Below, piece by piece: positions 55,112 to 61,111 of a DNA stretch of 64,000 bases. Origin of the DNA: Gammaproteobacteria bacterium (GTDB taxonomy: Bacteria > Pseudomonadota > Gammaproteobacteria > DSM-16500). A program made the translations under genes and the position numbers. How positions within the stretch are numbered: the first letter of the stretch is position 1; every line of letters starts with the position of its first letter. The stretch is from positions 13,930 through 77,929 of the forward strand of contig DATIJJ010000014.1 in the NCBI GenBank assembly GCA_035478795.1, written 5' to 3'. Below the pieces are notes generated by a model. It was not told the DNA's origin. It saw only the letters and a program-made list of their open reading frames with translations, and did no database searches.

Positions 55112-55244
55112 GCAGACACTCCTTGTAAGTTGACGGTATTCAAACCCCGGCCAGTATAAATGAAATTATTATGTCGCGAAAGGTGACAGGCCGTTCATTA
55201 TTACCTAGAATGCAGGGCCAAACAGTGAGTTGATTAAAAAAAGT

Positions 55245-58200
55245 ATGATCACGTTACGCAATGTGACCCTCAATCGGGGCACCACGGTTTTATTAAAAAA
55301 TGTCAACTGGACGATTTATCCCGGGCAACGTATTGGTTTGATCGGTGCGAATGGCTCCGGAAAATCCAGTTTGTTTGCCCTGTTATTGAATAATCTGCAT
55401 GCTGATCAGGGCGATGTCGATATTTCCTGTCAACGGGTACTGGCACATGTTGCGCAGGAAACGCCGGCGTATGCAAGATCGGCGCTTGATTTTGTGCTGG
55501 ATGGTGATCGGATTCTCCGTCATCTGGAAGCAGAATTGCTGAAAGCGGAAGAGGCGAATGACGGTCATCGCATCGGTGATCTCCATGAAGAATTCGGTAA
55601 AATTGATGCATACACCGCACCTGCCCGGGCAGCGCAATTGCTTTCCGGTCTTGGCTTCACGCAGGAAGAACAACAAAAACCGGTCAGTGATTTTTCAGGC
55701 GGCTGGCGCGTTCGTTTAAATCTGGCAAAGGCACTCATGTGCCCATCCGATATTTTATTGCTGGATGAACCGACCAACCATCTGGATCTTGATGCTGTCA
55801 TCTGGCTGGAACAATGGTTGATAAAATATCCTGGTACATTGCTGCTGATTTCACACGATCGCGATTTTCTCGATCAGACAGTTGATCACATTGCCTATAT
55901 TGTCCACCAGCAGCTTGAAATTTACGCGGGTAACTATTCGACATTTGAAAAAACACGCGCCGCGCACATTCTCTTGCAACAGGCTGCCTATGAAAAACAG
56001 CAAAAACAGATTGCGCACATGCAAGGTTTTGTGAATCGTTTTCGTGCGAAAGCCAGCAAGGCGCGTCAGGCACAAAGCCGGATGAAAGCGATTGAACGCC
56101 TTGAACTCGTGAATGCCGTGCAAATCGAATCGCCTTTTCATTTTCATTTCAGGCCTCCTTTAAAATGTCCGAATCCCTTGCTGACACTCGATGAGGCGAG
56201 CATTGCCTACGGCGAAAAAAAAGTGCTGGATCATTTGAGTTTCAGCATCGGGCCGGATGACCGGATTGGCATCCTCGGGCCAAATGGTGCGGGCAAATCC
56301 AGTCTCATCAAATTACTTGCGGGCGAAATCGATCCTGCAACCGGGATACGCGAAACGAGTTCCGGTTTAAAAATCGGTTATTTTGCGCAACATCAGGTGG
56401 ATCATCTGAATTTGCAGGAAACACCGATGACGCATTTGCGTGAACTCGCACCCAATGTGCATGATCAGGAATTAAGAACATATCTTGGCACATTTGGTTT
56501 TGTCGGGACGGATGTGTTTGATCCGATTAAACAGTTTTCCGGCGGTGAAAAATCACGTCTTGCGCTGGCTCTTCTCATCTGGCAACGTCCGAATTTATTA
56601 TTGCTGGATGAACCGACCAACCACCTCGATCTTGAAATGCGAAATGCCCTGAGCATTGCCCTGCAGGAATATGAAGGTGCGATGTTACTTGTCTCGCACG
56701 ATCGATTTTTGCTGCGCGCCACAGTCGACCGGTTGGTGCTCGTGGCCAATCATCGGGTAGAACCTTTTACAGGCGATATGCCTGACTATGAAAAATGGTT
56801 GCTGGATTATCGCCGACAGACAAACAATTCTCGAAAAAAGGGATCCACTGAACCCATGACAAATTTAATTACGCTGGATAATGTTTCACTCGCTTTTGGT
56901 CTCGATGTGTTGCTCGATCGTGTCAAATTGCAAATTGAAAAAGGGGAACGCGTTTGTCTGATTGGACGCAATGGTGCCGGAAAATCATCGCTCATGAAAA
57001 TCATTGAAGGTACACAATCGCCGGATAGCGGCACCCTTTGGCGAAAACCTGCACTGCGCATGGCGCGTCTCACGCAGGAATTACCGCAAAATTTGACTGA
57101 AACCGTTTATGAATTTGTGGCGGGAGGACTGGCTGAAACCGGTGAATTACTCGCGCAGTTTAATGCACTGACTCATCGCGTTGCAGACAATTATACGGAA
57201 CAGGATTTAAAAGAACTGGAACGTTTACAACACGCCATCGATAGCAAAAATGGCTGGCATTTTGAGCAGGAAATCAAACGCATCCTGGAACGTCTGCAGT
57301 TGCCAAACGATCAACGCATGGCGGATCTTTCCGGTGGCTGGCAACGACGTGCAGCGCTCGCCAGAGCGCTTGTGACAGATCCGGAATTATTATTGCTCGA
57401 TGAGCCGACCAACCATCTGGACATTGAAGCGATTCAATGGCTGGAAGAAGATTTGTTGCGATCCGGTGTCGCATTGATTTTTATTACACATGATCGCGCC
57501 TTGTTGAAGCGTCTTGCGACCCGCATTATTGAACTGGATCGCGGGCAATTAACGTCATGGCCCGGTGATTATGAAAATTTTCTGAGGCGTAAGGAAGAAA
57601 TGCTGCATGCGGAAGAAAAACAGAATGCGGAATTTGATAAGAAACTGGCGGAGGAAGAACGCTGGATTCGTCAGGGCATCAAGGCACGTCGTACGCGTAA
57701 CGAAGGACGTGTGCGTGCATTGAAAGCGTTACGTGAAACACGGGCAAAACGTCGTGAAGTTCAGGGCAAGGCCAGTTTTGATTTGCACGCGGCTGAAAAA
57801 TCCGGACAACTGGTTGTGGAAGTAAATCACATTTCGCAAACATATCATCACAAAAAAATCATCGGGGATTTTTCACTTCGCATCATGCGGGGAGATAAAA
57901 TTGGTTTAATCGGCCCAAACGGAATTGGAAAAAGTACGCTGTTGAATATATTACTCGGCAATCTAACGCCACAACAGGGCACGGTACGCATGGGCACGCA
58001 ATTGCATATTGCTTATTTCGATCAGTTACGCAAAGCGCTCGATCCTGAAAAATCCGTCATGGAAAATGTGTCACCTGGCAGTGATACGATTGAAATTAAC
58101 GGTAAAAAACGTCACATCATCAGTTACCTCGGTGATTTTTTATTTACGCCAGCACGCGCCATGACACCGGTCAAGGCACTCTCGGGTGGTGAATGCAATC

Positions 58201-58745
58201 GTTTGCTGCTCGCGCGTCTTTTCAGTCAACCGTCCAATTTGCTGGTGCTGGATGAACCGACGAATGATCTTGACATTGAAACACTCGAATTACTGGAAGA
58301 ATTGTTAGGAGATTATCCGGGAACCTTATTGGTAGTCAGTCACGATCGGGCTTTTCTGGATAATGTGGTCACAAGTACGCTGGTTTTTGAAGGCAATGGC
58401 GTGATTCAGGATTATGTCGGTGGTTATGAGGATGGGTTAGCGCAAAAAAAATCGAACACCGACATCAAAAATACGATTGAAAAAAAACCCGCCGCTGAAA
58501 AATCAGGGCAAAAATTAAGTTATAAAGAACAAAAGGAACTGGAAGAATTACCCAAACGCATTGACACACTTGAAGCCGAACAGGCAGCCTTGCAAGCTAA
58601 AACCGCACAGCCGGATTTTTATCAACAGGATGAAGCGACCGTGTCCGAGGCCATGCAGCGCCTGAAGACGCTCGCCGAGATGCTTGAAAAGGCTTATGAG
58701 CGATGGGCGGTGCTGGATCAGAAGGCGGCGTTGCAGAAGAAATAA
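55245..58745 (+). CDS. Four-NBD ABC-F protein: in-frame fusion of a YheS-like module (lacking its C-terminal extension) and a full Uup module
   Basis: A single frame with no stop. It has four Walker A motifs (GANGSGKS, GPNGAGKS, GRNGAGKS, GPNGIGKS), four signatures and four DEPTN.LD motifs. The junction reads ...DYEKWLLDYRRQTNNSRKKGSTEP-MTNLITLDNVSL (internal ATG at 56856). Confidence 0.8.
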   Translation: MITLRNVTLNRGTTVLLKNVNWTIYPGQRIGLIGANGSGKSSLFALLLNNLHADQGDVDISCQRVLAHVAQETPAYARSALDFVLDGDRILRHLEAELLKAEEANDGHRIGDLHEEFGKIDAYTAPARAAQLLSGLGFTQEEQQKPVSDFSGGWRVRLNLAKALMCPSDILLLDEPTNHLDLDAVIWLEQWLIKYPGTLLLISHDRDFLDQTVDHIAYIVHQQLEIYAGNYSTFEKTRAAHILLQQAAYEKQQKQIAHMQGFVNRFRAKASKARQAQSRMKAIERLELVNAVQIESPFHFHFRPPLKCPNPLLTLDEASIAYGEKKVLDHLSFSIGPDDRIGILGPNGAGKSSLIKLLAGEIDPATGIRETSSGLKIGYFAQHQVDHLNLQETPMTHLRELAPNVHDQELRTYLGTFGFVGTDVFDPIKQFSGGEKSRLALALLIWQRPNLLLLDEPTNHLDLEMRNALSIALQEYEGAMLLVSHDRFLLRATVDRLVLVANHRVEPFTGDMPDYEKWLLDYRRQTNNSRKKGSTEPMTNLITLDNVSLAFGLDVLLDRVKLQIEKGERVCLIGRNGAGKSSLMKIIEGTQSPDSGTLWRKPALRMARLTQELPQNLTETVYEFVAGGLAETGELLAQFNALTHRVADNYTEQDLKELERLQHAIDSKNGWHFEQEIKRILERLQLPNDQRMADLSGGWQRRAALARALVTDPELLLLDEPTNHLDIEAIQWLEEDLLRSGVALIFITHDRALLKRLATRIIELDRGQLTSWPGDYENFLRRKEEMLHAEEKQNAEFDKKLAEEERWIRQGIKARRTRNEGRVRALKALRETRAKRREVQGKASFDLHAAEKSGQLVVEVNHISQTYHHKKIIGDFSLRIMRGDKIGLIGPNGIGKSTLLNILLGNLTPQQGTVRMGTQLHIAYFDQLRKALDPEKSVMENVSPGSDTIEINGKKRHIISYLGDFLFTPARAMTPVKALSGGECNRLLLARLFSQPSNLLVLDEPTNDLDIETLELLEELLGDYPGTLLVVSHDRAFLDNVVTSTLVFEGNGVIQDYVGGYEDGLAQKKSNTDIKNTIEKKPAAEKSGQKLSYKEQKELEELPKRIDTLEAEQAALQAKTAQPDFYQQDEATVSEAMQRLKTLAEMLEKAYERWAVLDQKAALQKK

Positions 58746-59047: not shown

Positions 59048-61111
59048 TTATCGGACACTTATCGCCGGAACTGTATTGATGCTGGGAGCACGGCTACGTA
59101 ATGGTTGTGTTGGATCATTTGAAGGCGCGCCTCCTCCAAACGACCATCGCAGTGACGACGTTTTGAGCGGCTTAAGACTGCTCAGTAGAGAAGGTCTTCT
59201 GGCAGACTCATCCTCCTGAACAAAACTGGATCTGTTGTGCCTCACCTCCGCATCCCGCCGTTTCTGAAACACTCTCAACGCCAGATTCGCCAGCTGAACC
59301 TGCTGCGTCAAATGTTTTGTCTTCTCGACCGATTCTTTCAAGGCTTCTTCTGCCTTGGCCTGCTTGCGGTTGATGTTGTATTCATACACCTTGAGCGCAC
59401 CGTACAAAATGCCGACACCAAATATGAGCGCAATTGTCACCGGATTACTAAAAGCCGCCGCCGCAAATGGCAAATAAATCGCAGCGCCCTTGATTAAAAG
59501 ACACCGCATCACAAAGGCAGCCGTCGTAATACTGTTGATAAAGGTTAACGAACGGATACCCGCCTTCTTGACCTGCGACCACCACTTGATGGAGGTACGC
59601 GATCTGGCACCACCAAATTGCGGATTATCGAGCTCCGGCAATGTCATCGGCAATACCCTGTCTTCAGGCGACAAGCCGGCTTTTATTTGATTAATCTCTT
59701 TAAGCGTATTCCGGTACTGTGCTTCGAGACTCAACACACCTGTCTCTGCCTGCTTCGCCAACTCGACTTTCGCATCCACCGCTACATTTTGGCGAGCGTA
59801 ATGACCGATTCCCGCTTTATAAATACCGTACAATACACTGCCCGCAATAATCGCAGAGCCCATGATGGTATTGATCACCGGGATACTCTCAAGACCGGCA
59901 CCTACCAGGAGCAGAAAATCGGATGTAATCCAGGAAACGTATTGGAGATTGACATACATTGATACCATGTTCGTAAACCAGGACAATGTATTTTTCTTCG
60001 ATACGATGTCCCCGTTATTTTGGGCCAGCAATTGTATCTGGGCATGCAATTTTTCAGACTGTCCCGTGACCTTCAGCAAATCCGGATTTTTGCTCGCTTC
60101 TTTCAACTCTTTCTGCAATGTCTCTGTTGCCGCATCAAATCGCTGACGCAACACGACTTGCCGCATGATAGCGATCTTGTCGGCCTCAACCATCGCCTGT
60201 TCATCATCGGTTGCAACATCGGGAGCCGGTGTTGCAGCCCGTTTGTAATGACGCACAAAATTAATCGTCTTGACCAGGGGATACAAGAGTCCAATCGCCG
60301 CTGGAATACCAAATGCAACCGGCGTCGACAAGCCCACAATGCCATTTGAAAAACGACCGACATAACTGCCTACAGAAATCCACATTAACCAGTACATGCA
60401 AGCGCTGATAAATGTTCCGGTATACACAGGATTCAAAATTCTCCTGTTAAACCAGTGATTCTTGTAAGCCAGGTACAGGTTTTGTCGCCTCAACTTTTTG
60501 TGCAGATCATAATTCTCTTCGCGAAGCTTGAAAACCCACTCGTTCTTATCAATCGTGACAGACTCATATTTTTTGCCAAGCTCCGGATTATCTTTCAAAA
60601 TAGCTGGCAAATGGCGTTCAATTGCCTTTTTGACAGTTTCCTCGGCCGCTGCTGCATCTGTTGCCTGCTTTTTCTTTTTAGACACGCCGTCTTTTTCTTC
60701 ATCCAAAAGCGCCTGACGGATATGTTCGTAACTGCTGTGTTCCTTTATTTTTTGTTGTTTGTAATATTCGCGTGCAGCATTACCTGTCACAAGCAGTACT
60801 GCAAGACACAGCAGAAAAAAAGTGTGCGTCGGATCATGCGCTGTAAAACCAATACCAGGACCTGTTGCATCGCTATTGCCCGAAAAAATCTGGTCGCATA
60901 ATTGAGGATAACGGCCTTCGTACGTCATATACAAATCAACAGGTGTGACGATAGTATCCAGCATCAGGTTTTCATACTGGGCTGATGAAGGCCACCGTTT
61001 TTGAAAGAAAGATTTTTTGGGCGTCGACAATGGCACCCGGACGGATTTTTTGTTTACTGTCTGGAGCTCCACTCCTTCGTTTAGAATAATTGTTTTTCGC
61101 ACGCCCACCAT
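59048..61111 (-). CDS. Hypothetical 687-aa membrane protein with three or four bilobed hydrophobic hairpins, coiled-coil linkers and a Ser/Pro-rich tail
   Basis: A long ORF with its own terminator. I recognised no catalytic motif. Hydrophobic hairpins include TGTFISACMYWLMWISVG...GLSTPVAFGIPAAIGLLYPLV. Confidence 0.7.
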   Translation of the reverse strand: MVGVRKTIILNEGVELQTVNKKSVRVPLSTPKKSFFQKRWPSSAQYENLMLDTIVTPVDLYMTYEGRYPQLCDQIFSGNSDATGPGIGFTAHDPTHTFFLLCLAVLLVTGNAAREYYKQQKIKEHSSYEHIRQALLDEEKDGVSKKKKQATDAAAAEETVKKAIERHLPAILKDNPELGKKYESVTIDKNEWVFKLREENYDLHKKLRRQNLYLAYKNHWFNRRILNPVYTGTFISACMYWLMWISVGSYVGRFSNGIVGLSTPVAFGIPAAIGLLYPLVKTINFVRHYKRAATPAPDVATDDEQAMVEADKIAIMRQVVLRQRFDAATETLQKELKEASKNPDLLKVTGQSEKLHAQIQLLAQNNGDIVSKKNTLSWFTNMVSMYVNLQYVSWITSDFLLLVGAGLESIPVINTIMGSAIIAGSVLYGIYKAGIGHYARQNVAVDAKVELAKQAETGVLSLEAQYRNTLKEINQIKAGLSPEDRVLPMTLPELDNPQFGGARSRTSIKWWSQVKKAGIRSLTFINSITTAAFVMRCLLIKGAAIYLPFAAAAFSNPVTIALIFGVGILYGALKVYEYNINRKQAKAEEALKESVEKTKHLTQQVQLANLALRVFQKRRDAEVRHNRSSFVQEDESARRPSLLSSLKPLKTSSLRWSFGGGAPSNDPTQPLRSRAPSINTVPAISVR

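Follow-up and report, generated by a model that had tools for sequence, protein, structure and literature searches.

We analysed a 64,000-nucleotide (nt) stretch of contig DATIJJ010000014.1, here called the window. At one locus in the window the genes for two ATP-binding cassette F (ABC-F) proteins, YheS and Uup, are joined. The fused yheS-uup open reading frame (ORF; 55245..58745, plus strand) was identified by ORF listing and translation. It encodes 1166 amino acids (aa), equivalent to 131.4 kDa, with four nucleotide-binding domains (NBDs). The stop-free frame extends from 55230, or from the ATG at 55245, to 58745 and is the sole long ORF across the region. Because homologues open with MITLRN, ATG 55245 was taken as the start codon. 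[quoted passage not shown] What YheS and Uup do physiologically is a matter of continuing debate. The window derives from a 1.9-Mb metagenome-assembled genome (MAG) that is 95.5% complete and consists of 104 contigs. We refer to this genome as G000; other G and L labels denote genomes of relatives and metagenome contigs, respectively.

Domain content of the fused protein

A Pfam scan of the fused protein identified four ABC_tran domains (PF00005), two ABC_tran_Xtn domains (PF12848) and one ABC_tran_CTD domain (PF16326). The PF12848 matches mark the PtIM, the linker between paired NBDs, in two stretches (119 bits summed). From first to last, the Walker A motifs read GANGSGKS, GPNGAGKS, GRNGAGKS and GPNGIGKS. 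The corresponding signatures are FSGGWRVR, FSGGEKSR, LSGGWQRR and LSGGECNR. The Walker B motif DEPTN(H/D)LD occurs four times and H-loops are also present. Hence, with two NBDs per module and all ATPase motifs, the protein contains two full ABC-F modules. The initial annotation, made from the letters of the window, had proposed a single in-frame YheS-Uup polypeptide with four NBDs. The stop-free frame and the four PF00005 matches bear this out, and every Walker A, signature and Walker B motif that it quoted was found in the translation. No membrane-domain family was present among the 28 Pfam matches, in which NBDs, linkers and the C-terminal domain (CTD) account for the full length; no dedicated transmembrane predictor was run.

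The YheS module comprises residues 1-525 (55245..56819, plus strand). It consists of NBD1 with the Arm, the PtIM linker and NBD2, and it ends at the boundary between core and extension. Residues 1-537 match positions 1-531 of the 638 in the YheS equivalog model NF007921, as expected from the proposed collinearity of the first ~540 aa with YheS. The score of 737.3 bits falls below the curated cut-off of 917 bits because the last 107 model positions are missing. The best matches in the PDB are YheS structures (9vvi_W, 665 bits; 9nlh_H, 663 bits) and YbiT scores 336 bits. Its identity to the YheS of L010, which is not fused, is 84%, and in our tree the module clusters with the YheS of relatives. 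By best match, tree and synteny, we assign the core as a YheS orthologue. Like E. coli YheS (NF007921; 9vvi, 9nlh), it has NBD1 with the Arm, PtIM and NBD2 in collinear order with all ATPase motifs. E. coli YheS differs in having an extension of ~100 residues, whereas the fused protein carries a whole Uup covalently.

This C-terminal helical extension has been deleted from the fused protein and a short linker stands in its place. Hence, the missing model positions and the junction alignment agree with the earlier description of a ~90-aa extension replaced by a 15-aa linker. In E. coli YheS, residues 527-637 form this extension and cannot be seen in the 70S complex (PMC13249984; bioRxiv 10.1101/2023.06.15.543498). 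Unfused relatives have a YheS tail of ~80-100 aa that is rich in heptad-like repeats. All 14 complete unfused YheS proteins of close relatives retain it (616-635 aa). A search of the window's own genome, run without a positive control, found no separately encoded YheS tail.

The Uup module comprises residues 538-1166 (56856..58745, plus strand) and contains NBD3, PtIM, NBD4 and a C-terminal coiled coil. Its ancestral ATG at 56856 is kept. The module matches positions 2-634 of the 636 in the Uup equivalog NF050005 with 891.8 bits, the curated cut-off being 900. In the PDB, its best match is Uup (9nlj_U, 625 bits) compared to 383 bits for EttA. The coiled coil, PF16326, spans residues ~1090-1157 and scores 68.3 bits against a cut-off of 32. 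The last ~630 aa had been called collinear with Uup, including the C-terminal coiled coil, and the end-to-end match to NF050005 together with PF16326 upholds this. E. coli Uup (NF050005; 9nlj) and the module are thus alike over their full length, PF16326 included. They differ at the N-terminus, which is not free in the fused Uup; a 60-kDa YheS module and the linker precede M538.

The 15-aa linker RRQTNNSRKKGSTEP joins the YheS core to Uup. In context it reads ...DYRRQTNNSRKKGSTEP-MTNLITLDN, with the old uup ATG at 56856. Both the linker and the internal ATG are visible in the sequence as first annotated. The DNA junction alignment places the linker segment TNNSRKKGSTEP at 56820..56855 (plus strand), and this is the most variable segment among fused proteins. 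The junction-spanning tryptic peptide of the fused protein is GSTEPMTNLITLDNVSLAFGLDVLLDR.

Three further assemblies contain fused orthologues. Two belong to other species of the same genus: G001 (1169 aa, 82% identity) and G002 (DATIJV010000038.1; 1182 aa, 80% identity). The third, L009, is a Logan contig from an unrelated run and encodes protein P0003 (1169 aa, ~74% identity). In all four fused proteins, the Walker A, signature, Walker B with catalytic Glu, and H-loop are whole in all four NBDs. The ATPase motifs of the four NBDs are also kept in 11 relatives. For the window's own gene, two soil-metagenome runs (15x and 42x) yielded Logan contigs of 2684 nt that run across positions 56500-57200 with one single-nucleotide polymorphism and no insertion or deletion. 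The polymorphism is an A in place of G at 57020; it is seen in Logan contigs from three soil or rhizosphere runs (X1, X2 and X4) and is probably strain variation. Separately, the DNA encoding Walker B (LLLDEPTNHLD; 56601-56635) is near-identical between NBDs of the fused gene over ~35 nt. Logan contigs stop at this repeat, on which short contigs of numerous other organisms accumulate.

Unfused relatives and the origin of the fusion

In unfused relatives, yheS is followed directly by uup as a separate gene. This is the case in G003 and G004 (same genus), in G008 (another genus) and in many metagenome contigs; the unfused pairs lie on L010/L011, L012, L038, L040, L043, L044, L045, L118, L119, L120 and L125. 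The stop codon of yheS and the start codon of uup share an ATGA in most of these relatives (ATGACTAA in L010). Contigs L045 and L125 instead have a short gap between the genes and no overlap. The two frames are offset by one or two bases. Comparison with relatives had been suggested as a check, and yheS and uup indeed proved adjacent and stop-separated, mostly through the ATGA overlap. In some other family members, the two genes are on different contigs.

Upstream of the fused gene, and divergent from it, is a GDSL lipase gene (PF00657; 54182..55111, minus strand) that we used as a synteny marker. The same family is encoded divergently upstream of unfused yheS in L010 and L011. Because this divergent gene lies upstream in both, the window and L010 loci can be considered orthologous. 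Downstream, the 687-aa ORF on the minus strand (59048-61111) had no Pfam family at E <= 0.001.

We then compared the stretch between the codons for EKWL and the uup ATG. It measures 302-359 nt in four aligned unfused loci. In the fused genes, it is 66 nt in G000 and G001, 99 nt in G002 and 75 nt in L009. Compared to the aligned unfused loci, 236-293 nt are missing in the fusion, and in each fused gene the frame offset has been removed. The 3' part of the window's linker, RKKGSTEP, resembles the last ancestral yheS codons when these are read in the uup frame. Likewise, KKKERSIEP of G002 resembles MRTERSIKP, the uup-frame reading upstream of uup in unfused L012. The last linker residues of G000 and G002 (GSTEP and ERSIEP) equate to the final yheS codons in the uup frame. 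Together, the shorter stretch, the removed offset and the uup-frame yheS codons indicate that a deletion, not a multiple of three in length, joined the two frames. The alignments show the fusion to have arisen by deletion of most of the tail-coding DNA.

The coupled yheS-uup pair of G003, G004, G008, L010, L040 and L044 is orthologous to the two halves of the fused gene, has the same order, is 65-84% identical and, in L010, is syntenic. It differs in that it encodes two polypeptides, keeps the YheS tail, has offset frames and overlaps stop with start as ATGA. From this comparison, the adjacent coupled pair is the direct evolutionary precursor of the fusion. Hence, the locus shows that an ATGA-coupled gene pair can become a fusion via a single deletion. 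Contig L116 (1246-1560; JGI contig Ga0207003_1066) has a different arrangement. Its uup is 77% identical and has no yheS gene before it. The uup ATG is overlapped by a short yheS 3' remnant (..AREQRDQLNS*), and the upstream 300 nt are full of stops. This remnant indicates that the coupled locus has also been resolved by yheS loss.

To count fusion events, we built a maximum-likelihood tree from the concatenated YheS core and Uup of 11 loci. Genomes and contigs G000, G001, G002, L010 and G003 form a clade with 100/100 support. This clade contains both fused and unfused (L010, G003) genes, and fused L009 lies outside it, grouping with unfused G004 and G008. The separate halves give the same picture. 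In the approximately unbiased (AU) test, a single clade of the four fused genes was rejected (p = 2.5e-5). A single clade of the three same-genus fusions was not (p = 0.20). The tree and AU test hence indicate at least two independent fusions. Furthermore, the deletion end points of L009 differ on both sides from those of the other fused genes. Between G000 and G002 there is a clean 11-codon gap in the linker, which fits a single within-genus fusion with later trimming of the linker. We conclude that two independent fusions is the minimum, unless an 80-aa tail was regained by recombination. Separate adjacent orthologues, one continuous frame and recurrence, as expected for gene fusion, were all found. 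The fused species have the smallest assemblies in the genus, at 1.8-2.0 Mb; those of G003 and G004, which lack the fusion, measure 2.7 and 3.3 Mb, respectively.

The initial annotation had considered a four-NBD ABC-F protein unusual. Database searches support this rarity. A junction-region search covered 5.8 billion protein clusters, and its only matches longer than 1000 aa were the window's own protein and P0003. The next matches were two-NBD proteins with half the score. No protein of YheS-Uup type was among the top 150 of 1.84 billion representatives at 50% identity, where the only long match was P0240. Nor was a further fusion found in 80 JGI metagenome loci. The fusion is so far confined to a few uncultured soil Coxiellaceae. 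The domain architectures in the ABC-F survey of Murina et al. (PMC6723617) include neither a four-NBD nor a YheS-Uup form, and a full-text search of the literature found no description of a four-NBD ABC-F protein.

The P0240 cluster merits comparison. It comprises 16 members from JGI and ENA metagenomes that are four-PF00005 ABC-F proteins of 1307-1459 aa with Gly/Ala-rich spacers and a second half to which a source gives the name ABCF2. Some of these were labelled 'ATP-binding cassette subfamily F protein 2' by a source, and the composition of the cluster looks eukaryote-like. As in the fused protein, four PF00005 domains share one chain and the second half is of ABC-F type. However, the modules are unrelated, with 38% identity to one half only. 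Hence, the cluster is neither a YheS-Uup pair nor kin by descent.

Selection and products of the fused gene

Pairwise dN/dS, the ratio of nonsynonymous to synonymous substitution rates, was calculated among fused genes. The YheS module gave values of 0.045-0.076 and the Uup core 0.059-0.097, at dS of 1.2-3.6. The linker and Uup CTD are more relaxed. Terminal branches of the YheS module are no longer in fused than in unfused lineages. Fused genomes contain no second yheS or uup, and the sole other ABC-F protein is EttA-like. Across the five genomes of the genus, G008 and G011, the ABC-F set consists of YheS, Uup and an EttA-like protein; YbiT-like proteins are absent. BipA is present in all eight genomes checked. 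We also considered BipA loss or an altered ABC-F complement in fused genomes, and rejected both as the fused genomes did not differ from unfused ones. To judge from these comparisons, the locus encodes a genuine fusion of two ABC-F translation factors that selection has probably maintained. The product would most likely be a functional two-module ABC-F translation factor.

Several observations weigh against this interpretation. E. coli YheS without its C-terminal extension does not release SecM arrest in vitro (PMC11162784). Hence, a tail-less YheS core might lack activity, except where the fusion makes up for the loss. Should the fusions be young, the low pairwise dN/dS would largely predate them. 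In addition, the junction retains features from which separate products might arise. First, M538, encoded by the ATG at 56856, is invariant in all four fused proteins, and some free Uup is possible. Second, the DNA before this ATG can pair with the anti-Shine-Dalgarno (anti-SD) sequence. In G000, the predicted energy of -5.1 kcal/mol ranks at the 10th percentile of random positions; in G002, where the SD-like sequence is GAGAGGAG, -8.3 kcal/mol ranks below the 1st percentile. Third, the linker contains the heptamer A_AAA_AAG, a dnaX-like slippery site, at 56834-56840 (region 56834..56851, plus strand). The heptamer is correctly framed, and the 16,405 codons of the window's long ORFs contain just one other in-frame copy. 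In the -1 frame, the site is translated as K K G I H up to a TGA at 56849-56851, which lies 4 nt before the uup ATG.

These features would allow a rival reading, in which the genomic fusion is real but the working products are separate proteins. In such a scheme, free Uup would come from an internal start at ATG 56856. Slippage by -1 at A_AAA_AAG, or a change of 1 nt in its length, would yield a free tail-less YheS of ~535 aa ending at TGA 56849-56851, and the terminating ribosome, 4 nt from the uup ATG, could re-initiate. Consistent with this, G002 has an A9 run at the equivalent place (L036:4618-4626), followed by the same TGAACCCATG. However, the slippery site is absent from the linkers of G001 and L009, and their anti-SD pairing is weak (-3.5 and -2.9 kcal/mol, respectively). 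SD strength at the internal ATG is hence inconsistent among fused genes. The SD sites of unfused relatives are equally weak, so the sequence has perhaps merely been inherited. Lys-rich A-tracts are to be expected in an AT-rich linker. We found no downstream stimulatory structure, in that there is no plus-strand hairpin; the hairpin called at 56841-56855 belongs to the minus strand and depends on G-T pairs. On these grounds, the linker does not qualify as a programmed -1 frameshift site of the dnaX type. A consensus scan found no promoter-like site near the junction. The best match in the region is GTGACA-17-TAGAAT (55183..55211, plus strand), which has 10/12 consensus positions and lies 34 nt upstream of the start codon; it is a weak match, since 9 sites were found compared to 6.4 expected from shuffles. 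Finally, the full-length protein is the default of every ribosome that does not slip. Because G001 and L009 lack the SD and slippery features, we consider separate proteins an unlikely outcome.

Alternatively, deletion bias in shrinking genomes could have produced the fusion as a side effect that is tolerated, with the YheS half a non-functional passenger heading to decay. Only in-frame deletions would survive at such a locus, because uup translation depended on coupling to yheS. Indeed, within the genus it is the small genomes that have the fusion, E. coli YheS requires the extension for its activity in vitro (PMC11162784), and L116, with uup preceded by nothing more than a yheS remnant, represents another outcome at the same locus. 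Against this, the ~520 codons of the YheS module are free of stops and frameshifts in four lineages. None of the ATPase motifs is damaged, dN/dS of the YheS module is as low as that of the Uup core, and there is no acceleration in branch length. Moreover, among YheS proteins examined, the tail is missing only where Uup is attached, in at least two independent events, and this pattern favours compensation over decay. It suggests that the attached Uup compensates for the missing YheS extension. Decay of a passenger is, in our estimation, quite improbable.

An assembly artefact, be it a lost stop, a frameshift or a chimeric join via the repeated Walker B DNA, is scarcely credible, even though the genome is a MAG of 104 contigs and Logan contigs end at that repeat: the junction sits in unique linker sequence outside the repeat, contigs of two runs cross it gap-free, and three other independent assemblies of different species have the same architecture. 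The spanning contigs may stem from the samples behind the MAG; hence the fused orthologues of other organisms are the stronger evidence. The lost or mis-sequenced stop codon raised by the initial annotation was rejected for the same reasons, as four divergent assemblies each lack most of the tail DNA rather than differing by one altered codon.

Proposed mechanism and significance

The preferred interpretation, a maintained fusion of two ABC-F factors, leads to the following model. In the ancestor, yheS and uup were adjacent and translationally coupled. A deletion with a one- or two-base frame shift then allowed the YheS core to read via the 15-aa linker into Uup. Translation from ATG 55245 would generate a 131-kDa polypeptide with two NBD-PtIM-NBD modules and one C-terminal coiled coil, that of Uup. 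The fusion would thereby replace translational coupling as the route to Uup expression. Going by YheS and Uup orthology, each module should act as its free orthologue and enter the vacant ribosomal E site in its ATP form. The PtIM hairpin of the bound module would be pushed towards the P-site tRNA and peptidyl-transferase centre, and the module would exit after hydrolysis. Only one module could occupy an E site at a time, so alternating use is expected. One molecule would likely combine two stall-relief specificities at a fixed 1:1 stoichiometry.

Structures of the E. coli proteins are relevant to this model. In 70S complexes, the C-terminus of ABC2 is solvent-exposed, ~45 A from the mRNA exit channel (bioRxiv 10.1101/2023.06.15.543498). 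Hence, with one module bound, a linker of 15-25 aa could keep the other outside the ribosome. The C-terminal domains of YheS and Uup are invisible, and hence flexible, in 70S complexes (bioRxiv 10.1101/2023.06.15.543498; PMC13249984).

The Uup module or its CTD may take over the role of the lost YheS extension. We compared the tails of unfused relatives with PF16326, the Uup CTD family. Matches were sub-threshold (17-28 bits) and extended over nearly the full model length. Using hhalign, YheS tails and Uup CTDs aligned in register with 30% probability and E = 5.6e-4. It is plausible that the YheS tail and Uup CTD share a hairpin type. If this likeness holds, the fused protein would have one CTD for two modules. 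As a tentative extension of the model, which we hold to be possible rather than probable, the fusion is adaptive. The Uup module and the sole coiled coil would replace the YheS extension in a two-headed ABC-F protein, with two stall-relief specificities acting on the same ribosome or 50S assembly intermediate. If so, recurrence of the fusion, and loss of the tail only with Uup, would place YheS and Uup in a common pathway. The A-tract of G000 and G002 could add a switch between fused and split products, operated by a 1-nt slip.

The locus resembles Rosetta-stone gene fusions, in that most genomes have the partners apart, a few have them joined and intermediate ones have them side by side. It differs in that the partners are paralogues expected to compete for the E site, and not successive enzymes or subunits of a complex. 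Both Uup and YheS interact genetically with BipA in E. coli (PMC6723617), and this shared interaction fits a functional link between them. A natural YheS-Uup protein with at least two origins is a Rosetta-stone hint that these two paralogues cooperate. It is also a natural experiment on the YheS extension, which is essential in vitro in E. coli yet appears dispensable here with Uup attached. Furthermore, the fusion provides a ready construct for asking if two ABC-F modules work in cis on one ribosome. Within a well-known family, the fused protein represents a variant architecture that is real, has recurred and has probably been maintained by selection.

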